Source: a virus. Taken from it: a DNA stretch of 64,000 nucleotides. How positions within the stretch are numbered: position 1 is the stretch's first letter; each line of letters opens with the position of its first letter. The notes under the pieces were generated by a model. The model was not told where the DNA came from. It made no database searches and worked only from the letters and a program-made list of their open reading frames with translations. The DNA lies in the IMG/VR virus record IMGVR_UViG_3300033978_000437, one strand, 5' to 3'. Below are positions 2,016 through 34,394 of this stretch, in pieces. The translations under genes were made by a program, and so were the position numbers.

Positions 2016-2810
2016 TTATATGGCATGAGGAATAGCATAAATTTCAGGAGGCTGTACTAATGCCTGCCGACGTGCTCTTTCCTCCACAGCCTCATCCAAT
2101 ATCGCACGCCTGCTATTCTTCTTCATTGCTTTATTGACCAAATAGTAACCAGCAGGAACACTTGATAATAACCAAGTTAAAGCTAACCCTTTGCTAATAC
2201 CAGAAGCGTTTGGAAAAGTAGAATTAAATGTGTCAGAGATAGCTCCAACAGGATCTAATGCCGACTTTTGACTGTACCCTGCAAATGCTCGATCTAAATA
2301 ATCATCAGTTCCTTTCTTATATGCGCCTAATAAAGCTTCCTCATACTTCTTTTTTGAGGCTTCAAGTTTTGCTTTGCTTTCTTGTTCTTTTGCTCTGTTT
2401 AACAAAAGATCCACACCTTTCCACCCGCCATAAGCAGCAAGCGGAGCTCCTAAAAGCATACCAGGCAAATAATAGTCTAAGCCATAAGGAGAAGTTGCTC
2501 TAGAATTCGAATCAATAGCATTTTTCTCTTTTGGGTAAGCTACTGGCATATCAATTACGCGTGGCCCCTTTTTAGGATTTTTTGTATTATCAAAAAGTCC
2601 TGTAATCCCTCGAACTGCAGCTCCTGCCCCTACGCCTAATGCTAATGTTTTAAGAATACTTTTAATTGCATCAGCTTGCATTTGCTGATTAACTTGAGTT
2701 CTGAGGTCTTCACCAATTGCACCTACTGGAGTAACAATGGGGGTTGCTGCAGATTTTTCAACTTTAATTTGTTTCAATAACTTTTTTGCACTTGTCTTAT
2801 TCATGTCCAT
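2016..2810 (-). CDS. Putative virion/internal protein with glycine-rich hydrophobic segments and KxA motifs
   Basis: 264 aa; EKSAA, KNAID, QKSAL motifs; hydrophobic stretches LALGVGAGAAVRGITG, YYLPGMLLGAPLAAYGGW, GLALTWLLSSVPAGYYL. Confidence 0.55.
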   Translation of the reverse strand: MDMNKTSAKKLLKQIKVEKSAATPIVTPVGAIGEDLRTQVNQQMQADAIKSILKTLALGVGAGAAVRGITGLFDNTKNPKKGPRVIDMPVAYPKEKNAIDSNSRATSPYGLDYYLPGMLLGAPLAAYGGWKGVDLLLNRAKEQESKAKLEASKKKYEEALLGAYKKGTDDYLDRAFAGYSQKSALDPVGAISDTFNSTFPNASGISKGLALTWLLSSVPAGYYLVNKAMKKNSRRAILDEAVEERARRQALVQPPEIYAIPHAI

Positions 2811-2814
2811 ATCC

Positions 2815-3189: not shown

Positions 3190-3204
3190 CTTAGCCTCTT
3201 CTAG

Positions 3205-3630
3205 TTACAGAAAAATACGCCCAGTACTTTTACGCTTTGCTTTATAATCTTGTCGTTCTTTCTGCCTTTGCAGCTGTCCTGCTAATCTTTCATAAGTGTC
3301 TTGCAACTCTTGCCGTTTAATGTTTTCAATTCCTCGGCTACCTTCTGTGTCTGCAGCTTGGTTAGCAAAGTAAGCAGCAATACCGCCAATGGCCGGAGGA
3401 ATTGCTAAACCTGCCATCAAATAAGGAGCAATAGATCCAGCTGCGCTTACAGCGTTATTAACTTCACCCATGGGGCTAAACAAACTTGCAGCCATTTTAG
3501 ACAAACCATGTGTCTGCTCAGGGCTCATTCCCTCTTCAACACACCTAGACAAAAACCCAAGTTTAAATGCTTCGTGTACTTGCATTAAATAATCTCCTAG
3601 AACGCAACACTTTTGCCACTGGTCAAACAA
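3205..3630 (-). CDS. Putative virion membrane-associated protein (likely start 3585, MQVHEAF)
   Basis: AFKLGFLSRCVEEG motif, SKMAAS KxA motif, one Gly/Ala hydrophobic segment, then a coiled coil. The annotated start overlaps the upstream gene; the ATG at 3585 follows an AGGAG SD. Confidence 0.6.
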   Translation of the reverse strand: MFDQWQKCCVLGDYLMQVHEAFKLGFLSRCVEEGMSPEQTHGLSKMAASLFSPMGEVNNAVSAAGSIAPYLMAGLAIPPAIGGIAAYFANQAADTEGSRGIENIKRQELQDTYERLAGQLQRQKERQDYKAKRKSTGRIFL

Positions 3631-3995: not shown

Positions 3996-4003
3996 ATCAC
4001 ACC

Positions 4004-4449: not shown

Positions 4450-4465
4450 AACTATCTCCTTATAC

Positions 4466-5581
4466 TTAGTTAAAAAGACGAGGCACTATACTATTAATCA
4501 CACCTAGGGTAGCCCCAGTTTGCCCTAATGTAGCTTGCGTTCCGCCAGGCATGCCAGTTAGTAATCCAAGGCCATAACCAACTGTACGCCCAGTAATGTA
4601 ACCTTTAAGTCCGCCACCTGCGGCACCCATGGCCATACCAAATAACCCAACTTGGTGTGGGGTTACCATTCCTGGGCTTGAATTGGGATCTTGCATTTGC
4701 CCTGCCCCATATACTGCTCCCATTGTCATAGCTGTGGTTTGAGGACTTGCATTAGTCCCCCAAAGAACTTGCCCAAGCTCGTTTGTGCGGATCAAGGGCA
4801 TTTCAGTAAAAGAAGGACCACCAATAGTCCCAAAGGCATCACTAGAATGCTTAGATATAAAGTTTGCCACCGCCTCCTTATACTTTACGGAAGTAGGCAA
4901 CTTATCTTCAAATCCGTCTTCGGGAAAACCTTTAAAAAGAGTTGGATCATTAAATTCTCGACCTTCGTGCAGATTTATTAAACCGGGTACTGAACCTACT
5001 AAAGCTCCACCTGCTCCGCCTAATAAAGCCAGCCGTTTTCGTAAAGTACCTTTAGTCTGTGCCCAGTCTGGCAATACTTGTTCACCTAACCAACCTGCCC
5101 CATACCCAAGACCTGTACCTATAAGCCCGCTGGCAACCATAGCTGCAATAGGTCGTCCACCATAGCCGGGAATGTCTTTGCTTGGAAAAAATTGAGCTAG
5201 TTCTCCTAATCGTCGTATAGTTGGGGAGTAAGCTACCTTTACCCACCAGTCATGTAAATCGTAAGGTGTCAAAGGCTCAGAATGCACTCGGTCTGTTCCA
5301 AGCTTTTCTGTTAAAAGCCGTAGACCCCAATCAAACTCTTCTTGGTTTAGTACTGGGCGTACATACATGCCAGCCTTTTCAAGAGCTGGATTCCAGTAAA
5401 TACCTATATCTGTTTTTGTGTATAAAGGAGACACTATCCGTCTTATGATTTGAGCCGGAGCAGCACACTTCTCGGCCAAGTAATCAATAGTGCCGGGAAA
5501 ATCAGCGTATAACCCTAAATCTAGAGTCTGTTCGACATTTAAATTAGGTAACTCGCTATCGTATGCCACATGCTTATCCAT
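4466..5581 (-). CDS. Putative virion protein with glycine-zipper segments and KxA motifs
   Basis: 371 aa; GLIGTGLGYGAGWLG, ALLGGAGGALVG, GMAMGAAGGG; EKCAAP, VKVAYS, SKHSSD. Confidence 0.55.
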   Translation of the reverse strand: MDKHVAYDSELPNLNVEQTLDLGLYADFPGTIDYLAEKCAAPAQIIRRIVSPLYTKTDIGIYWNPALEKAGMYVRPVLNQEEFDWGLRLLTEKLGTDRVHSEPLTPYDLHDWWVKVAYSPTIRRLGELAQFFPSKDIPGYGGRPIAAMVASGLIGTGLGYGAGWLGEQVLPDWAQTKGTLRKRLALLGGAGGALVGSVPGLINLHEGREFNDPTLFKGFPEDGFEDKLPTSVKYKEAVANFISKHSSDAFGTIGGPSFTEMPLIRTNELGQVLWGTNASPQTTAMTMGAVYGAGQMQDPNSSPGMVTPHQVGLFGMAMGAAGGGLKGYITGRTVGYGLGLLTGMPGGTQATLGQTGATLGVINSIVPRLFN

Positions 5582-8072: not shown

Positions 8073-8519
8073 TTATTGTTCGTGATCGTTGTTTTTTTCT
8101 ACATAATCAGAAAAGTCAGTAGAAGGTACATCTTTGCCATTCCACATCATGCGAGAACGAGGCCCAAGCTCTCGAGAAACTTGTGCATAATCCGCTACAA
8201 TTTCTTGATCTTTGCTAATTTCTCGCTTTGCTACTAAATCAATTTGATCCTTATCTTTCTTTATGTCAACATTTGCTTTCCATTGATGGTTACAGTAACG
8301 AGCTAATTCTGTTAAATTCCAGATTTTAGACCCAAACTCATCTTCTCCGCCAGCAGTCCCAGCACTACCAATGCTCTCTCCTTCTTTGTAATCTTTATCC
8401 GCAAATATACCTTTCCCTTTTATATGGGATTCCCCTATATACCAGCCATTATGGCTAGAGGCCATTTTGTCAGTAAATCGGATAGGTACTGCTCGTAATC
8501 GCTGAAGAAACGCTTCCAT
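8073..8519 (-). CDS. SET-domain protein (putative lysine methyltransferase) with a KxA-ending leader
   Basis: SHIKGKGIFA (GxG), RYCNHQ (RxxNHS), LVAKREISKDQEIVADY (ELxxDY); leader ends DKMASS. Confidence 0.8.
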   Translation of the reverse strand: MEAFLQRLRAVPIRFTDKMASSHNGWYIGESHIKGKGIFADKDYKEGESIGSAGTAGGEDEFGSKIWNLTELARYCNHQWKANVDIKKDKDQIDLVAKREISKDQEIVADYAQVSRELGPRSRMMWNGKDVPSTDFSDYVEKNNDHEQ

Positions 8520-8603: not shown

Positions 8604-8816
8604 ATGCTAGTATTAAGTCGAAGAAAAGGCGAGAGCATTAAGATCAGTGATAACATCACTATCACCATAGTGGACATTCGTGGGGATAAAATTCAAATAG
8701 GAATAGAAGCTCCTCGTGAAGTTGCCGTACACCGTAGCGAAATAGCGAAGTTAATTGAAAATAAACTCAAGGCAGAGTCCAACTTGGAAGCTCCTGAGAA
8801 TCCTTCTGCTTCGTAG
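8604..8816 (+). CDS. csrA: Carbon storage regulator CsrA/RsmA homolog
   Basis: MLVLSRRKGESIKISDNITITIVDIRGDKIQIGIEAPREVAVHRSEI matches the CsrA signature; SD AAGGAAGGA. Confidence 0.95.
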   Translation: MLVLSRRKGESIKISDNITITIVDIRGDKIQIGIEAPREVAVHRSEIAKLIENKLKAESNLEAPENPSAS

Positions 8817-9351
8817 ATTTACTCGTAGCATTGGCAGTGAGTACCCCAGTTTTACGCACTGCCACTATTATGGAAAAATCAGAATCACCTTCAACTTTGG
8901 TAGGTAACCCGTAGCTACGGCGTAACTTACCTAGTTCTGGCGATTTGATTCGCATGTGCCAGCAAGTAGAAACACCGGGCCAACCTTTGGCAGATGTTTC
9001 TTCAAGCCCATCAAGGTAATAGCTAAAAGCTTTACCTCGCTCGCTTATCTTCTCAGTACCACCTATTTGCTTTAATTCTTCGGGGGTCATAACCACGATA
9101 CCTGCACGCAAAGCCCCGCCATCTACAGAAGTGGGTAAAGAAATACCAGGTTCGTGCATTGCGTCGAAAATACCACGGACTAATGCAGTAGGTATGCCAA
9201 CTATCAAGTAACTAGGAGCTGCACATTTTGAATTAGTGATTTGAAGCAAACCCGTCATTTTAACTTCCGCCCATTTCTCGGGCATTTGCAAAACATCATA
9301 GAGCAATAAATGCCGATAATCTGGAATATCAGCTGTAGAGATCAGACTCAT
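8767..9351 (-). CDS. 2H-phosphoesterase-like protein with both HxT/S motifs apparently lost
   Basis: Spacing and flanks resemble phage 2H proteins (LRAGIVVMTPEEL...SPELGKLRRSYGL...DFSIIVAVRK), but the positions expected to be HIS/HIT read GIV and SII; KCAA motif. Confidence 0.4.
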   Translation of the reverse strand: MSLISTADIPDYRHLLLYDVLQMPEKWAEVKMTGLLQITNSKCAAPSYLIVGIPTALVRGIFDAMHEPGISLPTSVDGGALRAGIVVMTPEELKQIGGTEKISERGKAFSYYLDGLEETSAKGWPGVSTCWHMRIKSPELGKLRRSYGLPTKVEGDSDFSIIVAVRKTGVLTANATSKSTKQKDSQELPSWTLP

Positions 9352-14094: not shown

Positions 14095-14919
14095 TTAATT
14101 AAGCTGCGGAAGTATACCTGTAGGAGCTACTTTTTTTGAAAAACCACCTAGTAGTTTTTTACCATAATGCGCAAGTAAAGGGGTTGCGGCTAGAGCTCCG
14201 TAAGTAGGTAATCCTATAGAAGCACCCCAGCGAGACTGACCAAGTCTTTTTAATAAAGCACCACCTCGCACACTTGCATCTACTTCTGCGGCAAGTAATG
14301 GAATGTGTGCGGAGCTACCAAGCAACGCAGCATTTCTTGAATTGCCCTCGTCACTGGACAACAAAGCTCCCCAAGTACCACCAACAGTACCCAACCTGCT
14401 TGCAATTTGGCCCGACGAAAGATTATTCGGTGATAGTAATTTTTTAGGTGTTAAAGAATGCCCTATTTCGTGTGCAAGGATAGCGGGTGATTCATTTACC
14501 CCAGTCCTTATCAAATTGCTTCTGGTATCATAAGAATAACCTAGATTATTAGATTGAGGTGCAAAGTCTATACCTCTAGATAAAGCCAATCTTTTTAAAG
14601 CTTGCGTAGCCTTCACATTCTCTGGCTTAGGACTAAAATTGAAGAGCTGCGGGTTATTGTGTGCGGCATAATGCTTAGATGGATTTGCATTTCCAGATGT
14701 GGCTTTTTCAAAAGGAGTCATTACTTTGTGTGCATATGCGGTTGTTGCTAAGAGGGGAGTCAGCAACGCAGGAGGGATTCCAAGCCCCCACAAGTAGTCT
14801 AAGCCCCGAGATGCTGGTTTAGCTGAGTCTTCCAAAGTATTAGAAGCAGCAGTCTTTGCCAATGCAATTATCGAGGCATAGTGCGTCATTGTTTGCCCAA
14901 AAGTTGTCAACATTTTCAA
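14095..14919 (-). CDS. Putative virion zinc metallopeptidase with glycine-zipper segments
   Basis: AILAHEIGH plus downstream AEVDASVRG (gluzincin-type third ligand); leader YASIIALAKTAAS; hydrophobic Gly-rich segments. Confidence 0.65.
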   Translation of the reverse strand: MKMLTTFGQTMTHYASIIALAKTAASNTLEDSAKPASRGLDYLWGLGIPPALLTPLLATTAYAHKVMTPFEKATSGNANPSKHYAAHNNPQLFNFSPKPENVKATQALKRLALSRGIDFAPQSNNLGYSYDTRSNLIRTGVNESPAILAHEIGHSLTPKKLLSPNNLSSGQIASRLGTVGGTWGALLSSDEGNSRNAALLGSSAHIPLLAAEVDASVRGGALLKRLGQSRWGASIGLPTYGALAATPLLAHYGKKLLGGFSKKVAPTGILPQLN

Positions 14920-14928: not shown

Positions 14929-15696
14929 TTAGACAGTAGCCCTACCCCGTGTACCCGGATTATATAGTGGGTAGTTTGGATTAGGATAATACGGGTTTAG
15001 CGGAGGAAAGGACGGAGTGTAATTAGGATTTGTGTTAGGCGCGTTATACTGTGTACCAGGGGCTACTGAATCTGGATTGATTTCCATAATTATAGGCGGT
15101 TTCTGGCGTACATAAGGTTGCAGCCCAGTCCCAGGTTTAGCACTTTCTATCACTGTTCTAGATTTATTTACACCAGGGCTTGAGTAATCAGTTGTGGAAT
15201 CAGAGTTGAACGCATCAATACCCCTACGAAACTTATTTAGCACAGCGCCTATTCCACTTTCGGATTCATTGTATCTCTTTTTAGCTGCTTCAATTACATC
15301 GCCTGCGAATGGCAGACCAATTTCTTTGATACCAAGGGCACCAGCACCGCCACCAATTATGCCCGCAGCGGGATTAGCTCTAGTAAAGTCAACTGCCGTT
15401 CTTCCAGCTACTCTAGTTCCCTTGCTTATACCAGAACCTAAACCTTTAAGCCCAGCCCAGCCCATCCCGCCAGCACCATATAATAAATTCCCTAAAAGCT
15501 TTAAAATAGCTTTCTTCTCTATCGATGCTTGCTTCTTCAACCCAAGGTAATAAGCACATGCTTGCTTGTTCCTTGTAGTAGGATACTCTGCAGCTTGCTT
15601 AATCAAGCTGGCAGGATTATAGCGAGCAAGCTCTGCATTTAAAATACGCAAACGATTAGCTTGTTTAATCAATAAATTTGACATGATATCCCTCAT
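14929..15696 (-). CDS. Putative virion protein rich in KQA motifs
   Basis: IKQANR, IKQAAE, NKQACA, KKQASI, EKKAIL, followed by a glycine zipper; Pro/Asn/Tyr-rich tail. Confidence 0.55.
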   Translation of the reverse strand: MRDIMSNLLIKQANRLRILNAELARYNPASLIKQAAEYPTTRNKQACAYYLGLKKQASIEKKAILKLLGNLLYGAGGMGWAGLKGLGSGISKGTRVAGRTAVDFTRANPAAGIIGGGAGALGIKEIGLPFAGDVIEAAKKRYNESESGIGAVLNKFRRGIDAFNSDSTTDYSSPGVNKSRTVIESAKPGTGLQPYVRQKPPIIMEINPDSVAPGTQYNAPNTNPNYTPSFPPLNPYYPNPNYPLYNPGTRGRATV

Positions 15697-22000: not shown

Positions 22001-22051
22001 TGCATTTTTTTCGTACATGATTATCTCCGTAAAATCGAAACAAAACCGCAA
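19043..22051 (-). CDS. Large Gly/Ala-rich putative virion polyprotein with glycine zippers, an EF-hand-like loop and KxA motifs (likely start 22018)
   Basis: EKNAD, AKEGA, AKKAD, AKKAG, IKQAG, EKKAV, KKSAG; DVNDNGKIEAAD loop; multiple GxxxG arrays. Confidence 0.6.
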   Translation of the reverse strand: MRFCFDFTEIIMYEKNADIMDSLRNAKNSVADGAMSLLQKIRGSSANDGVSALPPEAQQVIGDGVAALPESARKTVESLRGQPMENLAEKATKALGEGGRKLKDSAASGLAYVPGVGGSLDGFFNPIPGRGRLVSAMGEGQMASRFGASSGLLGGIGGATVGTGGALLALLLSKGKLNPRASLALGLGGPLGGAAAGGLVGNSIGTHAGANLFREMAAKEGAFTPPLTGNQEEIDVNDNGKIEAADLAALRKGKKLSKDKTKFAEWPTPPVFTAGMPLPEKKPNVYAGKPPAKKADTAGIQQAAQDKLASQDNCSPSRSAAGDSKGVKYKQQNEDHATGTAAFDSLDKYLRMAKKAGLNDFQSNFFGRLIQEGRNEHEMYAAIKQAGDQFGYKVGKELNRGLEKLSNWGKGLMMGAGALGLGGALGGAGYAAAKMPGAVQAGAKQGMQQGVENVGNNAINSAGNFMNNAIGNPMQAVMSRAPATGGNPFQNVLNAGMQHFGNMMTGAGAGVGGASGVGMQHLRNMATGAQNMVRANGLGGGFTGNGMGKQSHEKKAVNWAGLARSAANYLGTGLARPGAAVKSVYDAAKNSAGAAGPSMPSISKGIKGVLNDKTMRSQMWTGAGTGATNPFTGAFTPSDDPNAGWGDYAARVGGSALAGAGAGLLGGKGVQDVMKRMYAGSLAGSTADLGAGAFGIDTGGLGGKAGFLGAGISPAKMPKFLGARANRFAGGTDARAGLGWTIPGTQGDTVTALNKLDPFSLIGNGYTKFVKPNVRPALDAMKANKGLTAGIGLGTAGIGTGAYIGNKAVSGINDASERMNAQMNMLRNETHNNLSGIRQDLGGGMGGIGQFFEENKHWLMPALLAGGGALAGGAIGGGQGAALGGLSLPALYMMHQNGMFGGGKANPLHAPEATTHRPDYAQQNQQYEREQADKQIAARTRDPRLASPTSQIFPNNSIEGGIRQAIDNAKKYDPITGRIIENFSKKSAGDRAVRLLRHFAKN

Positions 22052-22100: not shown

Positions 22101-23621
22101 CTAAAGTTCCTTAAGCAAATCTAGAAACTTGTCATTTAGCTGCTGCTTACGATTACCCGCCGCAATGAGGTAATCATCGGTAGCAGATAAAGGATTAACT
22201 TTAATTCCGATGTAGCGTAGTAGAGACTTTAATCGACTTGGGGCTGTTCTAGCTATATATCTCTCTATCTTTACTTTCCTATCTGCAAGAGGAAGGTGGG
22301 CATGACTGTCATACCTTAATCCTCTACCTTCACTCTGCTCAGACCTAACATTATTCCAATGCGGATCCAATAGCTGCATAAGCTTCGTACCCTTAAACGA
22401 AAGTCCCTCAGTACCAGACGGACCAAGCAACGCTACCTTCAGCTTATCTGAGTTGTAGTCGTCTACCAGCTTCTTTCGTTGTTTGTCTGATAGTGCACCT
22501 GTGAAGGACGCTGCAGGGATACCAGCTTTGTCCAACGCAGCTTGATAAGGGTTCAGTCCTGACTCAATAAAGTTAGAGAAGATGAGAGCTTTACCCTTGG
22601 GATCCTTTTTAACCAACTCATTAACTCTTCTAAATGCTTCTGTTAGCTTTGGGGAACTGTTGAACGCAGCCATAGGGTCAGCTTTGTCTTGTGTGAATGT
22701 GCTAGTAGATAAACCCAGCTGTCTTGGCCCAGTCAAAAAGCTAACCATCTTCTTAGACTCTGCATCACTCAGCGGGTAGTTTAATTGCAACTTCCATTTG
22801 AGCAAGGCGGGTAGCTTACCATACATTTGTGAGTTTAGGTCCGTCTGATCCCTAGTCATCTCTGTAATCACATCTTCCCTATTGATCTCTGCTTGAGGCT
22901 TAGCTGGTGCAAAGTAATCTACCTTGCCTCTTAAGTTGTTCTTTAACTCCTCTACATTCTTTAAACCCGGATCGGGTGCCTTTAGATTAAAGAAACGGCG
23001 ATACAGCGAAGGTTGTGGGTCATTGTCTACATACCTAGCACTAAACTCTTCTGGAGTCGTATCCTTGCCGGTAAGCACGCTGTAAGGCACTGCAAAATCC
23101 GCAGGCGAGTTCACAATAGGAGTACCGCTTAGCATCACCACTTGTTTTGCTTTTCTAGCTGCGTCTAACAAATTCTGCGTCTGCGCAGATTGAGCGTTTC
23201 TAAACCGATGTGTTTCATCAATAAGCAACGAATTAGGATTCGCTATAGGAAGTCCTCTGCCTAGCCCAGTATGGCTCATAATGCTGCTAGGCACTGCCGT
23301 ATCTTGGTCGATGAACTTCTCTTGCTCTTTCCTTAGATTGGTACGGAGAGCAGCGGGTACGATTGCGGTGTAGGGGAGCTTCGAGCTTTCAGCAGCCGCT
23401 AAACCACCTAAGGTCTTACCCGAGCCCAGCCCTTGATACAGTAGCAATCTAACCTTGTCCTCAGTAGCAAGCTGATTTTGCACATTGCGTACAACTCTTT
23501 TTTGATGAGGTTGCAGCTCAATTCCAGAATTTAAATCTGCACGCTTGGTGAAACTCAACTTAGCAGCTTGCGTTGCTAAATAGGCAATTGCGTCAAAGGT
23601 ATTACTGGAGCGTTTAAACAC
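22101..23621 (-). CDS. SNF2/SF2 helicase-like ATPase with a KxA-type leader
   Basis: QGLGSGKT (I), LIDETH (II), LSGTPIVN (III), SEQSEGRGLRYDSH (VI); leader KRSSNTFDAIAYLATQAAKLSFTKRAD. Confidence 0.85.
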   Translation of the reverse strand: MFKRSSNTFDAIAYLATQAAKLSFTKRADLNSGIELQPHQKRVVRNVQNQLATEDKVRLLLYQGLGSGKTLGGLAAAESSKLPYTAIVPAALRTNLRKEQEKFIDQDTAVPSSIMSHTGLGRGLPIANPNSLLIDETHRFRNAQSAQTQNLLDAARKAKQVVMLSGTPIVNSPADFAVPYSVLTGKDTTPEEFSARYVDNDPQPSLYRRFFNLKAPDPGLKNVEELKNNLRGKVDYFAPAKPQAEINREDVITEMTRDQTDLNSQMYGKLPALLKWKLQLNYPLSDAESKKMVSFLTGPRQLGLSTSTFTQDKADPMAAFNSSPKLTEAFRRVNELVKKDPKGKALIFSNFIESGLNPYQAALDKAGIPAASFTGALSDKQRKKLVDDYNSDKLKVALLGPSGTEGLSFKGTKLMQLLDPHWNNVRSEQSEGRGLRYDSHAHLPLADRKVKIERYIARTAPSRLKSLLRYIGIKVNPLSATDDYLIAAGNRKQQLNDKFLDLLKEL

Positions 23622-23626
23622 TTAGT

Positions 23627-26600
23627 TTACCTTCCTTGAGTCGCCCAACTTGGTAGATCGGAAGAAAACCTAGAAGTAGCATAGGTGTTAGAAGGAGCCT
23701 TAGGTGCAGGAGCTTGTGCCATAGCAGTTGGTTTAACTGGATTAATTATATTAACACCGCTAGGTGACCAAGTTTTCCCGCTAGCTAGGGCCACACGCTG
23801 TTCTTTTTTAATGTCAAACATCGCTTTGTTGAGTGCAGTATGTTGAGGATCTTCTCCAGGCGGTGCAACATAAGTATTAGAAATGGATGCCGGTGCTTTA
23901 GCTAGTTCGGCAGAGCGTGGTCCATTTTTAGCATAGTGCTCTCCACCTTCGTTCATGGAGCCCTCTGGCAACCCTAGTTGCTTCTCTTTCTCTCTTCGCT
24001 CTCCACTAATGTCTATAGGCTTCCAAGTATTTGCGGGCTTAGGTGTAGCAGTTCTAAAACTTCCGCTAGTTGCGCTTGCTCGTGAATTACCAGAAGCACC
24101 ACGCTGCTGGTTAAATGCACCAGTGTTCGCATCAATGTTTGTTGTCACATTAGTAGGGCCGGGTTGTGTCTGCAAATCACCACGATAGAAGTTCTTACCA
24201 TTCCTTGTTTTTTGAGTTCCTGAATCGTAGGTAGAGGCCCCAGTTAGAATATTACCCATGCCACCATACTGAGCCCCATTCAATATTGAAGAGCCAAGAT
24301 TAGCTGCTGCAGCATTTCCGGGAGTTAAATAGCCGGGGGTTTCTGGCGCAAAATTAGAAGGGGGTGAAGCTTCAGGATTAGAGTCAATCAAATTAGTTGA
24401 AGGTAAGTTTTTGGGTGTAAAAGTAGCAGTATCGGGTTGAATTTTACCTCCGCTAAAAACTCCTTGGTGCGTGCCATTACCAACACCACCTATAGCGTTT
24501 TGTAGCTGCTCCACCTTAGTCCTATCTGTAGCCATATCATTAAAGTCTTCTTTAAACATGGAGCTATTACTAAGACCATTGCGTCTAAACGCAGGATGGT
24601 CACGAAGGCTACTAATAGGTGCAGAAGGAGGCACAGTACCGCCTTTTGGAGTGAAAGCTTGACCTGATTGCGCTGGGGCAGTCCTAAGCAAAGGATATGG
24701 TAACCTGCCTTCTGCTCCGTTTAGATACTGCGAGCCAAGCCCAGTATAGGGTATTGGTGGAGTAGCTGCAGGGGGAGTAAAGTTGTAAGTAGGGTTTTCA
24801 ACTCTATCTGGGAATACATGCCCACCCCAGCTATGCGTACCATTCCCAGTTGGGTTAGGAATACCTGAGGCAGCTCTAACTCTTGCAGCCTGATCTTTCA
24901 TTCTAGCTGTATCCTGTTCATTTAAAGCTACTACTCTGTTTAAGTAAGATCCTCCAGCTTGAGTCGCTGCCTGCTTAGCTAATGCAGCTATATAATCACT
25001 CGATTGTTTACCTATGTAAGGCTTACCAATCAGAGAAGGTAAAATTCCGGATTTTGGAAGACTAGCGTAGGGAGTAGCCTCGGGAGTAAGAGCAGGTAAC
25101 ACATTTGAGTTGAGAGCTTTGCGTATCTTGTCTACCATACTTTGGGTAGCTGCTTCTGAATTTGCAGCATCTTGACTACCACCTAGATAACGCATTGCCA
25201 GCCCGCTCCCTACTACGGGTAAGGATAACATTGCACCTATCCTAGACTTAGCTGCTAATCTTCCTAGATTTGAAACTCCCCAATTTAAAATTCTTTTAGG
25301 AGCAGCAATAGCGTTGCTTAAATTACCATAAGAATTTGTTCTAAATGCTAAAGATGTTGGATCCCCAAAGGAACTAGTCATACTCTGTCCGAGCGGAGTT
25401 CTATGCGCATAATCCACAAGCTTTAACTGTTGATCTCTGCTCAGACTCTCGAGTCCTCTGCCTAGACTGCTTGCAAATTCTGGCTTAGATTTGGCTAGTT
25501 GAAGCAGCTCGTCTTGCATTGCATTACGTGTAAGCCCATACTTATCCCCAGGTAAAACTGGAGCTATTGAGTTAAGTATGCGTTCTTTAGATGCATCCGC
25601 TAGCCCAGTTAAATGCTGTTTTAAAGCATCACCGGATAGGTTGTTGCCGTTAGAAATTAGCTTATTTTTTATAAAATCTCCTCGGCTATTTAACTTATTT
25701 ATTATCTCGTCTTGAGGTGCTAGGGACTTCTGACTAAACTCATTCATTCTATCATGACGCAGCTGCAATCTAGGTCTAAACTTAGAAGCCCATGCATCTT
25801 CCCTTTCGCCCAGCAACCCTTTACCTCGTAACCTTTCAATAAGGTTCTCCACTTTAGACTTTACTTTCCCCTGCATGGTATCCATTTTGCGAGCTATAGC
25901 TGCCCTGTCTGCTACAGCTTTTGCTGTATTGACATCGTTACGCGCAGCTGCTGTTCCTAACAGCGAAATTTTGTTGTTTCGAGCTGCCTCGTGTAGCGCA
26001 AATTGTCGCTGAAACATCGGTCCCTGTATCGCATCATCTCCGAGAAGTTCTGCACCCAACTGTGCATAAGCTGCAGCTGGCCCTTTATTGAATTGTCCGT
26101 AGTGCTCTGATAGTGAAGGACTCCATTTCATATTAGGCTGAGATCCGTCAGCTATCATTGTGGTAATAGGATTCTTGTAAACCTGTTCAATCATATCGCG
26201 CCCAATAAGTTTAGTACCATCGGGCCTCGTCCATACAGGTTGTTGAATTAAGTCCGTACCATGCTCAACATATGCTTTCAATTTTTCAGCAGCATTTAAT
26301 GTTGGAGAATTCATTTTCGTATTAAATTGATCCACTCGGTTCAACAAATTAGGTTCAAACTGGTCATACCGCTGCAGAGCTGGAATGCCTTTGTTCGCCC
26401 CGTAATTCACCGCTAAAGAGCCAGCACCTGCAATACCGCCTCCGGCCGCAGTCAAGTTACCAAGTCCTGTCATTATCCCAGATTGAGAAGGAGCAGAATT
26501 GATTACAAAGATAGGTTGTTGTTGTGGTTGCTGCATCCACTGCTGCTGGGGCTGTTGTGGCTGCTGCGGAGAATAAACAGAATCCATCGCTGATTTAGCT

Positions 26601-27505
26601 AATAAAGCAATTTGTTCAAATGCATCACTGCCACACTTCCACTTACGCAGTGCTTTGTTGATGCGGCTATCGGGATCATTAGCCGTTGCACTAGAAGTGA
26701 GCTTAGCCTTCATACCACCCATGCGTGCACAGAAGCTATCTTTACGAGATCCACCTTCGGGCTGAGGTCGTTTGATGTCGTGTCCTTGTGCCTTTAAGCT
26801 GGCTCGACCTTTATCATTTAAACCGCCTTCGGGATTCTTACCTTCAGCAGTTTGCCAAGCTGCACCGCTTTGCTTCTCTGCCTCTTTCTTCTTACCTGTA
26901 GGCCGACAAGATCCGGGAGTTAAAGCTTTAGTGCCTGGTACTCGTTCGTAACCTTCCCAGCATTGCGCCTTCTTCTCAGAGATCGCCGTTACCTTGTCCC
27001 AGTTCTTAGAATCTGGATAGTCTTCGTCCCCAGGCTTGGCAGTAGTTTCGCCCCTGCGCTTCTTAGCTCTTATGTTGGCCCAAAGGCCCGGCCGTACTGC
27101 TGCTACCTTAGCTAACAACGCAGCAAATCTTGAAGGCTGGCTAGTCTGAACACTGCTTTTCTTTTCAACCTTTTCCATTTTTGAGTAGTACTTAGGCTCT
27201 TCGGTAAGATGATCCACCGCAATCTCTGTAGCTACATCCGTATCATTAGTATGTTCTTTTTCTTCTTTAATTCCGGAATTTAACTCTGCTTTATCTAAGT
27301 CCGCAGGATTCTTATTATCACCAACTCCGCCTTTCAGCTTATTGGTGATTCCTAGTGCCTTCTTCTCTGTTTGGTCTTCTACATGCTCTGGCAACTTCTT
27401 ACCTCCTGTAGCTTCGGACCATTCAGAGCAGTCCCACGAACCTGCCTGACCTTTGCCTTTGAGAAGGTAACATAACTTACGCTGAGCATCAGATTTGAAT
27501 GGCAT
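23627..27505 (-). CDS. 1292-aa putative virion polyprotein: a chain of small conserved phage modules separated by KxA/S
   Basis: FKSDAQRK, EKEHT..VATEIAVDHL.E.PKYY (DUF5661-like), GLWANIRAKK, CWEGYERV, GGLN.KGR..RKDSFCARM..SRINKALRKWKC (DUF6321-like); eight KxA/S junctions. Confidence 0.6.
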   Translation of the reverse strand: MPFKSDAQRKLCYLLKGKGQAGSWDCSEWSEATGGKKLPEHVEDQTEKKALGITNKLKGGVGDNKNPADLDKAELNSGIKEEKEHTNDTDVATEIAVDHLTEEPKYYSKMEKVEKKSSVQTSQPSRFAALLAKVAAVRPGLWANIRAKKRRGETTAKPGDEDYPDSKNWDKVTAISEKKAQCWEGYERVPGTKALTPGSCRPTGKKKEAEKQSGAAWQTAEGKNPEGGLNDKGRASLKAQGHDIKRPQPEGGSRKDSFCARMGGMKAKLTSSATANDPDSRINKALRKWKCGSDAFEQIALLAKSAMDSVYSPQQPQQPQQQWMQQPQQQPIFVINSAPSQSGIMTGLGNLTAAGGGIAGAGSLAVNYGANKGIPALQRYDQFEPNLLNRVDQFNTKMNSPTLNAAEKLKAYVEHGTDLIQQPVWTRPDGTKLIGRDMIEQVYKNPITTMIADGSQPNMKWSPSLSEHYGQFNKGPAAAYAQLGAELLGDDAIQGPMFQRQFALHEAARNNKISLLGTAAARNDVNTAKAVADRAAIARKMDTMQGKVKSKVENLIERLRGKGLLGEREDAWASKFRPRLQLRHDRMNEFSQKSLAPQDEIINKLNSRGDFIKNKLISNGNNLSGDALKQHLTGLADASKERILNSIAPVLPGDKYGLTRNAMQDELLQLAKSKPEFASSLGRGLESLSRDQQLKLVDYAHRTPLGQSMTSSFGDPTSLAFRTNSYGNLSNAIAAPKRILNWGVSNLGRLAAKSRIGAMLSLPVVGSGLAMRYLGGSQDAANSEAATQSMVDKIRKALNSNVLPALTPEATPYASLPKSGILPSLIGKPYIGKQSSDYIAALAKQAATQAGGSYLNRVVALNEQDTARMKDQAARVRAASGIPNPTGNGTHSWGGHVFPDRVENPTYNFTPPAATPPIPYTGLGSQYLNGAEGRLPYPLLRTAPAQSGQAFTPKGGTVPPSAPISSLRDHPAFRRNGLSNSSMFKEDFNDMATDRTKVEQLQNAIGGVGNGTHQGVFSGGKIQPDTATFTPKNLPSTNLIDSNPEASPPSNFAPETPGYLTPGNAAAANLGSSILNGAQYGGMGNILTGASTYDSGTQKTRNGKNFYRGDLQTQPGPTNVTTNIDANTGAFNQQRGASGNSRASATSGSFRTATPKPANTWKPIDISGERREKEKQLGLPEGSMNEGGEHYAKNGPRSAELAKAPASISNTYVAPPGEDPQHTALNKAMFDIKKEQRVALASGKTWSPSGVNIINPVKPTAMAQAPAPKAPSNTYATSRFSSDLPSWATQGR

Positions 27506-27528: not shown

Positions 27529-27843
27529 TTAACGGCGCAACAATGCACTGAGGATTTGTTTATCTAAAGATGTCTTCCCTAACCCAACCTCAGTGTTTGG
27601 AGGTGGAGAAGTACTTGCATTAGGGAGCAAAGCTGGATTAGCAAGCTTCTTAGGTTGCCGAGCAAATTCATAGCCCGCCATACCACCTAGACCAGCAGCT
27701 GCAGTAGTAAGCGGGGCACGAGATGCCGCTCTAAATAAGGGGCCTAACAATGCAGCAATGGCACGTTTTTCTCTAGTGCTGGCAATAGCTTGTTTTTCTA
27801 AGCGGTTAAGCATATTGCGTAGCTTTGCGGTTTTGTAAAACAT
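27529..27843 (-). CDS. Small KxA protein with one glycine-zipper segment
   Basis: YKTAK, EKQAI, EKRAI; TTAAAGLGGMAGY. Confidence 0.6.
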   Translation of the reverse strand: MFYKTAKLRNMLNRLEKQAIASTREKRAIAALLGPLFRAASRAPLTTAAAGLGGMAGYEFARQPKKLANPALLPNASTSPPPNTEVGLGKTSLDKQILSALLRR

Positions 27844-27921: not shown

Positions 27922-28584
27922 TTAGTTAGCGTTATTTTTACGAAACATATCACCATTTGTACGCAATGACTTATTAACATCCTTCTCGACAAAATTCTCA
28001 GTCCGCTTATCGTTACCATGTGGGTTATGATAAACAGATAACTTTTTTGCATCAATAAACCGATGAGTCAGCCCCTGTTTCCTTAACCTAGCGTAAATGT
28101 CAGTGTCCTCAAAACTATAATTAACAAAACGCTCATCAAACCCACCAACAGCCCTAAAATCAGCAGTTCTAATGTACAATAAACCATGAAGATATTTCAT
28201 AAAACCTAATTTATTGTCAAACACCTCCATCCTGTAGTCACCAGTAAAGAAATCTTTATCACTAAGCTTATGAATATCAAAAAAATTAAAGTAAGGATTT
28301 AAGATGTAATCGACATCCATTTTTAAAACAAACTCGGTATCGACATGTGAAAAAGCAATATTCCAAGCTGCGGCCACATGGTATGTGTCTTTGTTATCAA
28401 CTCGCTTAAATTCGATCCTATTGTCTAGAAGACAAAAAGACTTTACAAAATCAGCAGATAAGTCGCTGGACGACCAATCTACCACAATGATTTTAGTAAC
28501 CTCTTTATACTTCAACCAAGACATTAGGCTGACCCGCAGCATGTCAGCCCTATTCATCACAGCAGAAACAATAGTAATACTCAT
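27922..28584 (-). CDS. GT2/GT7-like glycosyltransferase
   Basis: IVVDWSS, LKMDVD (DxD), VGGFDERFVNYSFEDTDIYARL. Confidence 0.85.
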   Translation of the reverse strand: MSITIVSAVMNRADMLRVSLMSWLKYKEVTKIIVVDWSSSDLSADFVKSFCLLDNRIEFKRVDNKDTYHVAAAWNIAFSHVDTEFVLKMDVDYILNPYFNFFDIHKLSDKDFFTGDYRMEVFDNKLGFMKYLHGLLYIRTADFRAVGGFDERFVNYSFEDTDIYARLRKQGLTHRFIDAKKLSVYHNPHGNDKRTENFVEKDVNKSLRTNGDMFRKNNAN

Positions 28585-30756: not shown

Positions 30757-31470
30757 TCACTTTTGCCTTTCAAATATTTGCTTAAGCTCCGGAAACAGTT
30801 CAAATAACTTTGTAACTAAGTAAGTTCTATGGTCATAGTGCCCTTCAATTTGACAAATAGCTGCAGGGCATGGCAACTCTTGAAGTTTCAAGTTATGCCT
30901 TCGGTTGAACTTCTTCGTCTGTAGCATTGCAACAATGCTTAGAAAGATGTCTTCCCCATTCCATATTGGCTTACAGTCTTGCACATAAGGTGCAACTATA
31001 GGTGCCAGCTCCATCACTTTCTTTATAGTAAGGCTAGAGGTCATAGCAAAGTGGGGCAGTATCACTGGAACATGGGCAGAGAGTGCGTTCTTAGGAATGT
31101 AGGTAGTCTCTGTTATAACTCTACCCGTAACTCCATGAATTGAATGCTTGTCCTCTAGCCACTGTTCATAACAAAACTTGATAGAAGCGTTATCCACTAC
31201 GAAGTCATCGTCTTGGAAAGCAATACACTCGGTGGTAGCTCTCTCTGTGGCTAGGAACCTACAATACATCCCTACTTTTTTCTGCTCTTCAAAGTTTTTT
31301 AACTGCAGCAACCTATCGTTGTATACATAAGTATCAAAGCAAGTCTCTCTTAACGCATGCGACACTATTATCTTATCGATTAGCTCGTTCTTCAATAAGC
31401 TTGGGAGAATGTGTTCAACTAGGTTTCTTGGTCGCTTGTAGTTTAAAAGGACGAAAGTTATCTTGCTCAT
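30757..31470 (-). CDS. GT64/EXTL2-like glycosyltransferase
   Basis: VLLNYKRPRNL, IAFQDDDF, WNGEDIFLS. Confidence 0.75.
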   Translation of the reverse strand: MSKITFVLLNYKRPRNLVEHILPSLLKNELIDKIIVSHALRETCFDTYVYNDRLLQLKNFEEQKKVGMYCRFLATERATTECIAFQDDDFVVDNASIKFCYEQWLEDKHSIHGVTGRVITETTYIPKNALSAHVPVILPHFAMTSSLTIKKVMELAPIVAPYVQDCKPIWNGEDIFLSIVAMLQTKKFNRRHNLKLQELPCPAAICQIEGHYDHRTYLVTKLFELFPELKQIFERQK

Positions 31471-34394
31471 TTAAACTCAATATATTTAGAAGGTATCTTC
31501 CCCATAGGTGTAACAACTTGAGCATGCGGTACATCCGATGCGTAATACTTACCTTCTGTGTCCTTAAAGTCTTTCCACATGTCTTTCGGGTTTTGACCCC
31601 TAGTTAGCAATGCCTTAATTTCGTCCAATGATAATGTATGGTGCCGTTTATTTACAAATTCATTCCTACCTTTTTCGTCTAAGGCAGCATAAGTCGTGTC
31701 TGAGAATGGAATCAATTCGCTGCCTTCCATCTTTGTAGCGGGGTAGTCCCTCAATAGCTCACGTAATTTAATTACAGCCCTAGTTGTATCAAACTTCTTA
31801 ATTGGGTGCTTATCGTGGATTTTCTCAGCATCTATATCACCAAAGAAAGCAGAGGGGCCATTGTAGGAGTTTGTCCACGGAGACTTAGCTAATCTTGCAT
31901 CCCTTTCTTTAAGCCACCTGTCTGCATCTCCATCCGGTCTAGCTATATCTAACAAGTGCCTATTTTCAGGCTTTGCTAATTCGTTTCCTGATAACAGTCC
32001 ATGCTTTTTTACATGCTCGATAGAACCATTTGGAATGTAAGAGTATAAGTTCATTGGAGCAGCTGACTTTTCTTTAGCTGCTGCCAAGAAGCCCCTACCA
32101 CTCTTTAACGCCTTGAATAATCTCTGTTGTTGCTCCATAGGCATATCACTTAATGCCTCGGCTTCGCTACGAGTCCTTCTGGCAGGCATCATGCCCGCAT
32201 ACATGGGCCTAGTACCCAATAACTGCTCTGCTGCCCTACTTGGAACTGTACCAGTTAGCCCTCTTTTGTTCACTTGTAATCTAAACCTATCCGCAAGCTT
32301 CTGCTTAAAGGTGTCGTTAGGATCCATAAGCGGGTCAGCTGGGTCATACATGTTAGACATGCGATACGCCAAATGATGGATAGCATTAAGCCTCTCTGAG
32401 TCTTTGTTTGATAACTTCACTGGAGTTGAAGTCTGAGGAACAGTAGTAGGAGCAAAGGTTACAGGATGATTGGTCTTAGCCCTAATCCTTGCAGCTAGCT
32501 CTTTGAACACTTCTTTCCTTCTTGCCTCATCTCCATCGAAGGACAACTCCACATCGCCCGTGTCCTCGTTGTTGACTCCTAAGCCAGTTAGCCCACGCTC
32601 GTCTAATAAAGAGTGATACAACTTCCTAAGCCCAACACCTTGCACCTTATTACCTGAGGCGGTGAAGACTCCTGCACCTTTGGTTAAATTAGGTGGTAGT
32701 ATCTTTGAGTCGATCCAATCCATAAGCTGACCCGGCATAGCTTTAACCCGCCTTGGAATATCTCTAGGGAAGGAAAGAGTGTTGTGCACCCATTGTTCAG
32801 TTGGGGTGTATTTAGGTGCGTAAGCGCGAGCACGCCAAGGATCTGTAGCGAAGCTTATGGCCTCCCCAATCTGTCCTAAGGGAGTTCTACTCATAGCCGC
32901 ATTTGCATTCATTTCCATAAGAAAGTTACTCCTATTCGGAGCCACTTTACCTCTAACAGTAGTCCAACCAGATTCAGGTTTAATAGGAAATTTTGTGCCT
33001 GTGATCAAGGTATGCAGTGAGTTAAAGTTGTTGGGCAATTGAAATTGAAGACCATGCGTAAGTTCATGCCGCATGAATTTATTATTATTTGGAGTAAAAT
33101 TAACAATAGCATTAGTTCTTGGAAGATAATGAGCACCTGGAGGTGTATATATCTCGCCCCAAGGTGCATGTTTGAAATCAGCTGTTGCTTGATTTTTTGC
33201 TACAAATCCCGAATAAGTCCTCTGTAGCGGAGTTCCAGACATCTCAGTCGTTATCTTATCAAATACGCCTTCGGGAGTTTGATTCTCTGGGACCATTGTT
33301 TTAAATTGACTTCTCAATGCTTTAAAAGCTGGAGAGTTTTCACCCCTAACAGCAAAAGTCGGAATGTCACCTACCCCAGTTGACGGAACAACTGTCTTTA
33401 CCCTACCAGTAGCCCGCAACGCTTCTCTAACCGCAGGAAAGCCTGGGTAAAAAGTGTTCTTAACAAAGCTAGGAGTAATAGGACTTTTTATGAGAGTGCT
33501 CAATACTCGGTTAGCTATGTCTGCTATTCCGGCTTCTTTATCTAAATCAGCTGCTGATTTAAGAATCTCTGGTGGGAGCTGAGCACCTGCAGGCAGCGTA
33601 CCAGTCTGTAATAACTCCCGTCCTTTAGCTGTTGCGGGAAGTACTTGGCCGTCAAGTAAAACGGACTGCAGTTGGGATGGCTTTACTAGTGTTTCATATC
33701 TGTTTGAGGTATGATAGAAGAAAGGTTGAAACACTTCTGGGATTGGATTTTTTGGGGTAATAGAAGTCAATTGGTGTTTACGAATATGATTCTTTATCTT
33801 CATTGAATCTTGCCATGCCCTATAGGCATAATTTAACCCTCTAGTTGGATCAATTCTATCATGACCCATCAGCTGAGTTCGATCTCGTTCAAAGCCATAA
33901 TCAGGCATATATCTTTGATTTTTTGTTGTTCCATAAACACCAACTAAACTTTTAGGGCTGTAAACAGTGCCATCATAACTGTCAGGGGGAACATAGTTAG
34001 AACGTGGCCCTAACAGTCTTGGTTGCTTTATTCGACCATATGCCGCAGCAACGCCTTTAAATGGGGTAGCATGAAGATAATCAGTAGAATAACCTCCACG
34101 AGTCAAATCAGCTACATTCCCGCCACGAAATACTTGAGCAGGTTCTGCAGATCTTGAAAAACCTATAGTTGCACCTGCTGGGCCGCTAGGCAGGCTATCT
34201 AATGCCTTAGCAAACCCTTCTCCTGGTAATTTTATGCCTTGTTGCTTTGCTGCTAATTGCAATGCTCCAATTCGTGGATACTCTGCAACAACATCTTTAC
34301 CCAACAAAGCAGTTAAGCCTTGAACTGTACGCCAGCGTGACGCAGTCTTCTCCATCCGAGCAAGCATCAATCGCAGTTTAGGAATGTTAGCCAT
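31467..34394 (-). CDS. 975-aa multi-module putative virion polyprotein (ART-like, HExxH peptidase, acylphosphatase, ART-like)
   Basis: Modules start after EKTAS, LKSAA/DKEAG, TKGAG and EKSAA; VFRGG..HATPF..AAAYG; RHELTH..MEMNANA; GNKVQGVGLR..GVNNEDTGDVE; LYSYIP..HVKKHGLLS. Confidence 0.6.
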   Translation of the reverse strand: MANIPKLRLMLARMEKTASRWRTVQGLTALLGKDVVAEYPRIGALQLAAKQQGIKLPGEGFAKALDSLPSGPAGATIGFSRSAEPAQVFRGGNVADLTRGGYSTDYLHATPFKGVAAAYGRIKQPRLLGPRSNYVPPDSYDGTVYSPKSLVGVYGTTKNQRYMPDYGFERDRTQLMGHDRIDPTRGLNYAYRAWQDSMKIKNHIRKHQLTSITPKNPIPEVFQPFFYHTSNRYETLVKPSQLQSVLLDGQVLPATAKGRELLQTGTLPAGAQLPPEILKSAADLDKEAGIADIANRVLSTLIKSPITPSFVKNTFYPGFPAVREALRATGRVKTVVPSTGVGDIPTFAVRGENSPAFKALRSQFKTMVPENQTPEGVFDKITTEMSGTPLQRTYSGFVAKNQATADFKHAPWGEIYTPPGAHYLPRTNAIVNFTPNNNKFMRHELTHGLQFQLPNNFNSLHTLITGTKFPIKPESGWTTVRGKVAPNRSNFLMEMNANAAMSRTPLGQIGEAISFATDPWRARAYAPKYTPTEQWVHNTLSFPRDIPRRVKAMPGQLMDWIDSKILPPNLTKGAGVFTASGNKVQGVGLRKLYHSLLDERGLTGLGVNNEDTGDVELSFDGDEARRKEVFKELAARIRAKTNHPVTFAPTTVPQTSTPVKLSNKDSERLNAIHHLAYRMSNMYDPADPLMDPNDTFKQKLADRFRLQVNKRGLTGTVPSRAAEQLLGTRPMYAGMMPARRTRSEAEALSDMPMEQQQRLFKALKSGRGFLAAAKEKSAAPMNLYSYIPNGSIEHVKKHGLLSGNELAKPENRHLLDIARPDGDADRWLKERDARLAKSPWTNSYNGPSAFFGDIDAEKIHDKHPIKKFDTTRAVIKLRELLRDYPATKMEGSELIPFSDTTYAALDEKGRNEFVNKRHHTLSLDEIKALLTRGQNPKDMWKDFKDTEGKYYASDVPHAQVVTPMGKIPSKYIEFK

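Follow-up and report, generated by a model that had tools for sequence, protein, structure and literature searches.

E-K-x-A as a probable recognition signal of a gp21-like prohead protease on head-interior and candidate cargo proteins of an Arash-related phage

Analysis of a 64,000-nucleotide stretch of the IMG/VR virus record IMGVR_UViG_3300033978_000437 (hereafter, the window) points to the tetrapeptide motif E-K-x-A as the recognition signal of a T4 gp21-like prohead protease that would act both on head-interior proteins, encoded outside the window, and on a set of candidate cargo proteins encoded between window positions 2,016 and 34,394 (hereafter, the finding region). We put the probability of this reading at about 0.7. 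The motif is enriched in two parts of the genome, is conserved in diverging orthologs, and lies at the ends of N-terminal leaders and at the edges of exchanged protein modules; the head module encodes a protein with the predicted fold of gp21 and conserved His and Ser residues.

The window corresponds to positions 50,690-114,689 of a 178,753-bp phage contig, read on the reverse strand (genome position = 114,690 minus window position), and almost all genes of the contig share one strand. The phage is a member of a large clade of ~155-235-kb phages with Salmonella phage Arash, Bacillus phage G being more distant. Clade-wide features are an HK97-type capsid protein and a multisubunit RNA polymerase (RNAP). 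The major capsid protein (MCP), encoded outside the window at genome positions 133,774-134,721, is 29% identical to that of Arash and 24% identical to gp27 of phage G, and at least 75 relatives with MCP identities of 57-100% were found in IMG/VR, from contigs of up to 235 kb. Genes in common with Arash are those for terminase, portal protein, RNAP beta and beta', an SNF2 helicase (gp217 of Arash) and a 492-amino acid (aa) head-module protein (gp222 of Arash). Distant orthologs were compared in a complete 204.8-kb relative (G001), and close ones in contig IMGVR_UViG_3300027782_000034 (L087, L094, L095; hereafter, the sibling).

Results

Enrichment and specificity of the motif

A first-pass annotation of the window had proposed that at least 13 open reading frames (ORFs) of the finding region, 13 of which it named, carry a K-x-A/S code, often in the form EKxA, by which a head protease would mature virion cargo. 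All 13 ORFs are present on the minus strand with the starts it had listed, and all eight pentapeptides that it quoted are encoded where it had placed them. In its broad form, the code proved indistinguishable from background in composition-matched within-protein shuffles, K-x-[A/S] occurring 80 times in the 13 ORFs versus 78.0 +/- 7.3 expected (z 0.27) and K-x-A alone 52 times versus 48.8. The EKxA sub-motif, in contrast, is strongly enriched, with 13 EK.A sites found versus 2.0 expected (z 7.9) and 18 versus 3.3 for EK.[AS]. Because the ORFs had been picked by eye for the motif, and were thus subject to selection bias, whole regions were tested with every ORF included. EK.A then stood at 13 versus 4.0 in the finding region with its 33 ORFs (z 4.5, a count that 2000 shuffles never reached) and at 18 versus 1.7 in the head module, which lies outside the window at genome 123-135 kb (z 12.9); the four remaining genome regions were at expectation. 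Within the finding region, seven of the 13 EK.A sites fall in the first 40 residues of their proteins, a span that holds 12.9% of all residues (binomial p 5e-4). The 21 other ORFs of the region (encoding ribonucleotide reductase (RNR), an exonuclease, glycosyltransferases and others) have no EK.A, and the 34 ORFs at 34.4-64 kb of the window have two, in line with the earlier statement that replication and glycosylation genes lack the pattern.

A specificity profile was built from 148 sites in 11 relatives. Glu is preferred 7.2x immediately before the Lys, followed by Val, Thr and Ile at ~3x; Leu, Phe or Met precede and Ala or Ser (or Ala, Ser or Gly) follow the motif, and the flanks carry no information. 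Ser in place of Ala was rejected (EK.S 1.3x versus EK.A 7.2x). The motif is accordingly corrected to (E > V/T/I)-K-x-A, in which Lys and Ala are both strict and Ser does not substitute for Ala, and its profile looks like that of a protease site. A literature search found no paper describing an EKxA or K-x-A motif.

Among 8,000 patterns of the type ab.c, EK.A ranks first in the 20 kb flanking the MCP gene of five diverged relatives (L016, L022, L025, L029 and L032; counts of 18 versus 1.7, 15 versus 1.9, 13 versus 1.3, 21 versus 1.4 and 18 versus 1.6) and second to eighth in five more. It is also over-represented in the head module of G001 (18 versus 2.0), in Arash (34 versus 15.3, concentrated in gp218-gp225) and in the first 40 kb of phage G (12 versus 4.4; p 0.001). 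Genome-wide, EK.A ranks 11th of the 8,000 patterns, below those that originate from a repeated Trp/Ser peptide array. Most of 23 control patterns, 17 of which present E, K and A in other orders or spacings, stood at ~1x; the highest, EK..A and KEA, both at ~3x, follow from the motif itself. The DNA pattern of the motif occurs 46 times in frame versus 2-4 times in each other frame, and codon usage at the sites equals background. Given the control patterns, frame counts and codon usage, composition and DNA-level artefacts can be ruled out.

Conservation was tested in alignments (high-scoring segment pairs) below 90% identity. Both K and A are retained at 12 of 12 sites (24/24 residues, versus 395/653, or 61%, for other K/A; Fisher p 8e-6), which supports purifying selection on the motif. 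Sites in ORFs 8767 and 2016 are conserved against G001 as well.

A predicted gp21-fold protease in the head module

The prohead protease that the first-pass annotation had expected elsewhere in the genome was found outside the window:

Genome 129915-131393 (L001:17915-19390): predicted prohead serine protease, 492 aa, 2.4 kb upstream of the MCP gene.

The gene stands beside those of scaffold-like proteins, in an order that is syntenic in relatives and Arash (gp222 to gp226). Its product combines a conserved N-terminal domain of 240 residues with a variable, helical, scaffold-like C-terminal tail of ~250 aa. The full-length model was too diluted for Foldseek searches against the PDB; a model of the domain only (pLDDT 80.8, pTM 0.81) gave matches, the top three being gp21 chains (prob 0.97-0.99). 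Aligned with VIA-align, the domain model matched T4 gp21 (5jbl_A) with a Z of 10.9 and an rmsd of 3.2 over 150 of 165 residues, the sole chain of 48,161 with Z>=8; varicella-zoster virus assemblin came second (Z 6.2), and the cytomegalovirus protease reached Z 4.4. BFVD matches include prohead proteases and gp19 of phage G. His103 and Ser166 do not vary across 11 clade members and are also present in Arash gp222, and their order and spacing, as compared by sequence, resemble those of known prohead proteases. Searches of Pfam and PHROG gave no family at E<=0.01, so that membership in Peptidase_S77/S78 was not obtained by sequence, and a PDB sequence profile search with the protease family returned noise only; with no Pfam match, the protein is called gp21-like by fold only. 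On the strength of the model, we identify the 492-aa protein as a prohead protease of the gp21/herpesvirus-assemblin fold, its activity being predicted.

A K-x-A lies 8-15 residues past the last conserved RPAD-type motif in 13 of 13 homologs, Arash gp222 and phage G gp19 included, behind the catalytic domain and, by analogy, at what looks like the position of the assemblin release site. The protease tails hold 5-7 EK.A each. More generally, sites cluster in the proteins encoded upstream of the MCP, with 5-7 per protein in the 492-aa family, 2-5 in a 471-aa family and up to 4 in a 401-aa family, and are absent from the tail proteins encoded downstream of it in every relative examined. Family assignment of head-module proteins via PHROG and Pfam yielded almost nothing.

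Two further proteins encoded outside the window carry K-x-A sites. The RNAP beta'-C subunit (genome 118812-122744; L001:6812-10744) has 1310 aa, versus 606-640 aa in Arash and other relatives. TKLA|MDSV (residues 657-664) falls at the end of the polymerase, directly ahead of the extra tail of ~650 aa, and this K-x-A|MDSV junction is common to RNAP beta'-C and a 1292-aa window protein described below. A 392-aa protein of no known family maps at a distance from the head module (genome 17880-19058, minus strand; L005:17880-19058:-). About ten of its K-x-A positions are conserved in a 48%-identical G001 ortholog; four of these read EK.[AS] in our phage, and four read EK.A in G001. This could be a further head-core or cargo protein that undergoes heavy processing.

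Sites at leader ends and module edges of window proteins

The 13 ORFs, each named after its first window coordinate, are as follows.

31467..34394, minus strand: candidate cargo polyprotein, 975 aa; leader MANIPKLRLMLARM-EKTA (34341-34352); TKGA (32673-32684) just ahead of an acylphosphatase-like segment; EKSA (32061-32072) before the conserved C-terminal module.
27529..27843, minus strand: 104-aa ORF; leader MFYKTAKLRNMLNRL-EKQA (27787-27798); second site EKRA (27760-27771).
23627..27505, minus strand: multi-module protein, 1292 aa; EKKA (27356-27367), DUF5661, EKKA (26966-26977), DUF6321, AKSA|MDSV (26588-26599).
22101..23621, minus strand: SNF2-family helicase (Pfam and PHROG helicase matches); N-terminal extension of ~25 aa ending in TKRA|D (23538-23549).
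19043..22051, minus strand: 1002-aa protein; TKFA (21260-21271), IKQA (20894-20905), EKKA (20384-20395), EKNA (22001-22012).
15760..17253, minus strand: 497-aa protein; leader module of ~66 aa with IKTA (17212-17223) and EKRS (17062-17073).
14929..15696, minus strand: 255-aa protein; IKQA (15658-15669), IKQA (15592-15603), EKKA (15508-15519).
14095..14919, minus strand: 274-aa ORF; no preferred site, no homolog in the sibling or G001.
8767..9351, minus strand: 2H-phosphoesterase-like protein, 194 aa; N-terminal EKWA (9268-9279).
8073..8519, minus strand: SET-domain protein (Pfam SET); no [EVTI]K.A site.
4466..5581, minus strand: 371-aa protein; EKCA (5462-5473), VKVA (5231-5242).
3205..3630, minus strand: 141-aa ORF; no preferred site, no family match, no G001 homolog.
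2016..2810, minus strand: 264-aa protein, directly upstream of RNAP beta; leader MDMNKTSAKKLLKQIKV-EKSA (2748-2759); EKNA (2517-2528), QKSA (2259-2270).

The leaders of ORFs 31467, 27529 and 2016 are alike (PKLRLMLARM-EKTA, AKLRNMLNRL-EKQA and AKKLLKQIKV-EKSA), all three being basic, amphipathic and ending at residues 15-18; the start of the 104-aa ORF has a Shine-Dalgarno-like sequence and that of ORF 2016 a good Shine-Dalgarno sequence. In ORFs 22101, 8767, 14929 and 15760, sites are found at residues 10-61. The leader motif of the window ORFs is the one present in the protease, scaffold-like and MCP proteins.

Comparison with the sibling placed several sites at the borders of exchanged modules. 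Two parts only are common to the 975-aa protein and its 382-aa sibling ortholog: a leader of 19 aa with its EK.A at 15, and the C-terminal module, which follows an identical EKSAA; the middle, which in our phage includes a Pfam acylphosphatase match at residues 580-634, is replaced. A pattern search with this protein returned the sibling genome and one further contig matching the C-terminal module only. The 104-aa ORF is homologous to the inside of a 590-aa sibling protein from the very site onwards (our residue 25, sibling residue 295). In the 1292-aa protein, Pfam domains at residues 75-116 and 222-289 are bracketed by sites, those at 47 and 177 are identical in the sibling, and the module common to both phages ends at residue 303, which is the AKSA site; beyond it come a Q/P-rich linker and ~900 aa without recognised fold. 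The 497-aa protein has only residues 1-66 in common with its sibling ortholog (83% identity), up to the EKRS site, which reads EKRA in the sibling, and its body is replaced; its N-terminal ~100 aa are paralogous to ORF 14929. The 255-aa product of the latter has a 46%-identical homolog in the sibling, which carries the module inside a longer chain (residues 187-402 of 414) and retains the sites found at 32 and 60 in ours. Sites 14, 261 and 383 of the 1002-aa protein are kept in a 52%-identical sibling ortholog. A TTG start is listed for this protein, but the twelfth codon is an ATG preceded by GGAG, and residue 12 is also where the ESM Atlas entry begins; M12 is the likely true start and EKNA, in consequence, probably residue 3 of the true protein. 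A pattern search with the 1002-aa protein returned the sibling genome only, and protein atlas searches with the bodies of the 1292-aa and 1002-aa proteins gave scores below 0.8 and structure TM values below 0.2. The Pfam search of the large window proteins found no peptidase domain, only DUF5661, DUF6321 and the acylphosphatase-like segment. The comparison points to very fast, modular turnover of the finding region: the sibling has an MCP 100% identical and a helicase 95% identical to ours, but identity drops to 52% for the 1002-aa protein, and several cargo genes have been exchanged or fused anew.

In the helicases of the clade, [T/C/L/D]-K-[Q/R]-A-[D/E] is kept before an LQPHQ motif, where it ends the ~25-aa extension. 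Arash gp217, 32% identical to our helicase, has no extension and starts where the cut would leave the mature end. In Arash virions, the 1,148 spectra of gp217 put it on a level with the MCP and RNAP beta' (PMC10585845). The helicase is conserved in Arash and other relatives, although G001 has no homolog of it (blastp, E 1e-4); it is also the only one of the window candidate-cargo ORFs with an Arash ortholog. In relatives with ~70% identity, the surroundings of the helicase gene contain one further counterpart of the window ORFs, a match to the 1292-aa protein in its N-terminal part, and no others.

The N-terminal EKWA of ORF 8767, whose product matches Pfam 2H-SAK below threshold (23.8 versus 27 bits), aligns with EKRA in a 57%-identical G001 ortholog. 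Against a 43%-identical G001 ortholog of ORF 2016, EKNA aligns with EKGA and QKSA with EKAA, and the G001 leader ends in IKQA. VKVA of ORF 4466 is conserved in a 62%-identical G001 ortholog. Taken together, about eight of the 13 ORFs that had been put forward (31467, 27529, 23627, 22101, 15760, 14929, 8767 and 2016) are credible substrates on these comparisons; 19043 and 4466 are doubtful, and for 8073, 3205 and 14095 substrate status is unsupported. The placement of motifs at leader ends and domain boundaries stood for the leaders of 31467, 27529 and 2016 and for the module edges, and probably falls for the supposed leader site of 19043. Membrane-spanning ejection proteins, also postulated for the region, found almost no support, transmembrane segments amounting to borderline Gly/Ala-rich hydrophobic stretches in ORFs 3205 and 4466.

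Genomic surroundings

The portal gene stands ~58 kb away from the MCP/protease module, amid replication genes:

Window 43118-45034, minus strand: portal protein, 24% identical over 494 aa to Arash portal gp204 (E 1.5e-50); no EK.A and no [VTI]K.A.

Terminase is encoded on the opposite strand (genome 21831-23786). Interspersed with the candidate cargo genes are those of a PhoH-like ATPase and of two glycosyltransferases, one GT2 and one GT64-like (window 34411-35070, 27922-28584 and 30757-31470, all minus strand), and a further GT2 gene lies immediately downstream of the MCP gene (genome 135264-136484). The window also encodes a 431-aa tubulin/FtsZ-family protein (38617-39912, minus strand; Pfam Tubulin 8.6e-11) and a 1163-aa family A DNA polymerase (59621-63112, minus strand) whose single polypeptide also has a uracil-DNA-glycosylase-superfamily domain at its N terminus and a 3'-5' exonuclease domain. 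The combination of phage tubulin and multisubunit RNAP is reminiscent of nucleus-forming phiKZ-like phages, though the capsid genes are Arash/phage G-like. A repeated Trp/Ser-rich microprotein array at genome ~31-40 kb gives rise to the tripeptide patterns most over-represented in the proteome (LW.L, WS.W, HI.V, DQHIL). Megablast of 8.5 kb found no near-identical DNA in the phage collection.

Discussion

The first-pass annotation was right in its core idea of a lineage-specific head-protease code on probable cargo, for which enrichment, recurrence in relatives, selection, module-edge position and the gp21-fold protease now argue, and wrong in how it stated the code. In the mechanism that we favor, the protease would recognise (E > V/T/I)-K-x-A. 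Inside the prohead, it would free itself at the K-x-A behind its catalytic domain and shred its own tail, degrade the core and scaffold-like proteins encoded beside it, and trim the N-arm of the capsid protein. It would also remove the short basic leaders and separate the modules of the fast-evolving window proteins. The cargo would comprise the SNF2 helicase, the 2H-phosphoesterase-like protein and several large proteins of unrecognised fold, co-assembled into the head and probably leaving it with the DNA. Cleavage itself, the cut position, packaging of the window proteins and their injection are what we infer. The cut would most likely fall after Ala and before A/S/G, because Lys and Ala are strict, Glu is tolerant and a small residue follows, as in assemblin sites.

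Several observations weigh against this reading. Trypsin also cuts after the motif Lys. The ORFs had been flagged by a reader seeking the motif, and three turned out to have no site and two to have sites that fail in distant orthologs. Motif conservation in homologs, which holds for the 12 sites tested above, breaks down in G001 for EKCA of ORF 4466 (KECS there), DKMA at 17 of ORF 8073 and two sites of ORF 19043 (261 and 383). In the MCP, the first site (EKLA at 21) is not conserved, and only the second K-x-A is. A conserved E-x-EK[IL]A that lies within the protease domain, ten residues ahead of the putative catalytic Ser, is clearly structural and not a cleavage site, and one relative (L072) shows no EK.A enrichment in its MCP-flanking 20 kb. 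The scissile bond could also be E|K, since gp21, the closest structural relative, cuts after Glu. For the window cargo and RNAP, the only experimental link is the abundance of the Arash helicase ortholog and RNAP subunits in purified virions; multisubunit RNAP is present there, with gp217, RNAP beta/beta' and gp218-225 abundant, in a permissive list of 116 proteins that includes obvious cytoplasmic enzymes (PMC10585845). Peptide-level evidence of cuts was looked for in the Arash paper and its feature table and was not found.

Instead of being cut, the motif might be a docking or targeting signal, bound by scaffold, portal, inner capsid surface or a chaperone, that recruits proteins into the prohead or organises its core. 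Such a signal would show the same distribution in head-interior proteins and leaders, and in T4 targeting and processing determinants do overlap in one 10-residue leader (PMC9026906). We regard it as unlikely nonetheless, for the 5-7 copies in the protease tail, the copies at junctions of swapped modules and the copy behind the catalytic domain in all 13 homologs fit cleavage better, and four residues with information-free flanks make a weak docking element. It also seems quite unlikely that the head-module signal is real while the window ORFs carry chance EK.A in cytoplasmic early or middle proteins that stay outside the capsid. The choice of ORFs by motif, the three ORFs without sites, the sites lost in G001 and the plainly cytoplasmic genes of the region (RNR, exonuclease, glycosyltransferases) would all fit; yet the regional test on all ORFs remained significant, the N-terminal bias, conservation in fast-diverging orthologs and module-edge location are unaccounted for, and the helicase ortholog is abundant in Arash virions.

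Lysine modification, for example methylation by the SET protein of ORF 8073, or a role of the Lys as cross-link acceptor, would explain why this residue is invariant and why a SET gene is found in the same region, as it also is in G001. We hold it to be very improbable: the complete Arash genome has no SET gene and the motif is still enriched there, which makes SET-mediated methylation unlikely, and modification leaves the module boundaries, the leaders and the end of the protease domain unexplained. Next to no weight, finally, attaches to the notion that EKxA has no biological meaning and is merely common in helical, Lys/Ala-rich proteins, E, K and A being helix formers. The broad K-x-[AS] pattern is indeed at background and several carriers are Ala-rich and helical, but within-protein shuffles control for composition, no control pattern approached the 7.2x of EK.A, EK.A came first in five independent genomes, and sites are conserved beyond background; the pattern-rank, conservation and control-pattern tests thus led us to reject a composition-only explanation.

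Prohead-protease recognition of E-K-x-A, if correct, can be extended to a broader proposal, which we offer tentatively and with somewhat less than even confidence. The Arash-like/phage G clade may have a new prohead-protease specificity, E-K-x-A with a cut after Ala, that amounts to a capsid-loading 'grammar': modules placed behind a basic leader of ~15 residues or between two sites would be loaded and released, and recombination at the sites would shuffle the injected arsenal of virion RNAP, SNF2 helicase, phosphoesterase and giant proteins. To our knowledge, prohead-protease motifs are known for only a few model phages, e.g. T4, phiKZ/SPN3US and HK97. Where such a motif is known, virion cargo and mature protein ends become predictable from sequence alone. 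For the Arash/phage G clade, a defined motif would make it possible to predict candidate injected proteins by sequence across hundreds of uncultured genomes of 150-235 kb, would explain the swapping of cargo modules in these phages and would supply a short peptide with which foreign proteins could be directed into capsids, a use already made of the T4 capsid-targeting sequence; MANIPKLRLMLARMEKTA is a candidate leader. As Arash and phage G are in culture, the code is directly testable.

Comparison with known systems

Herpesvirus assemblin release and maturation sites are of the type (V/L)-x-A|S. The phage protease is like assemblin in fold class, in its scaffold-like C-terminal fusion, in the site directly behind the catalytic domain and in Ala followed by Ser/Ala; it differs in that Lys would be required two residues before the Ala, with Glu preferred, and in its bacterial hosts and much wider predicted range of substrates.

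T4 gp21 cuts at (L/I)-x-E, and its internal proteins IPI-III and Alt carry capsid-targeting sequences (PMC9026906). The two systems have in common the protease fold (Z 10.9 to PDB 5jbl), short N-terminal leaders with the motif at their end, the presence of this motif in scaffold/core proteins and in the protease itself, and poorly conserved cargo (here putative) scattered outside the head module. Unlike in T4, where P1 is Glu, Lys and Ala are strict here, Glu is only preferred and P1 is probably Ala; the protease, known here from sequence and model, bears a scaffold-like tail of ~250 aa and has no Pfam S77 match, and the putative cargo includes very large multi-module proteins.

The phiKZ gp175 and SPN3US gp245 proteases use (S/A/G)-x-E sites and process many head and ejection proteins, virion RNAP subunits included (PMC5694885, PMC10052503). 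The phages concerned are likewise large and carry a multisubunit RNAP along with many internal proteins in the capsid, as known for Arash from virion data and suggested for our phage by orthology, and many of their substrates have N-terminal propeptides, several with multiple motif copies. In our phage, the motif is different, MCP and protease are of the Arash/phage G-like lineage, and sites are also found between the modules of polyproteins.

The polyvalent proteins of phages and conjugative elements (Iyer et al. 2017), for which self-processing by their own zincin-like peptidase domains was proposed (PMC5512222), resemble the window proteins in being large, multi-domain and thought to be packaged and delivered with the DNA, in the recurrence of SWI2/SNF2 ATPases and phosphoesterase-type domains, and in the proposal of processing before or during packaging. 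Unlike in polyvalent proteins, the joints here match a head-protease motif, most modules belong to no recognisable family and the Pfam search found no peptidase domain of their own.

Since the combination of protease, leader and cargo is already established in T4 and phiKZ/SPN3US (PMC9026906, PMC10052503), the present case represents a new specificity and a new clade rather than a new kind of system. A third novelty is that sites serve as joints in polyproteins whose modules are shuffled.

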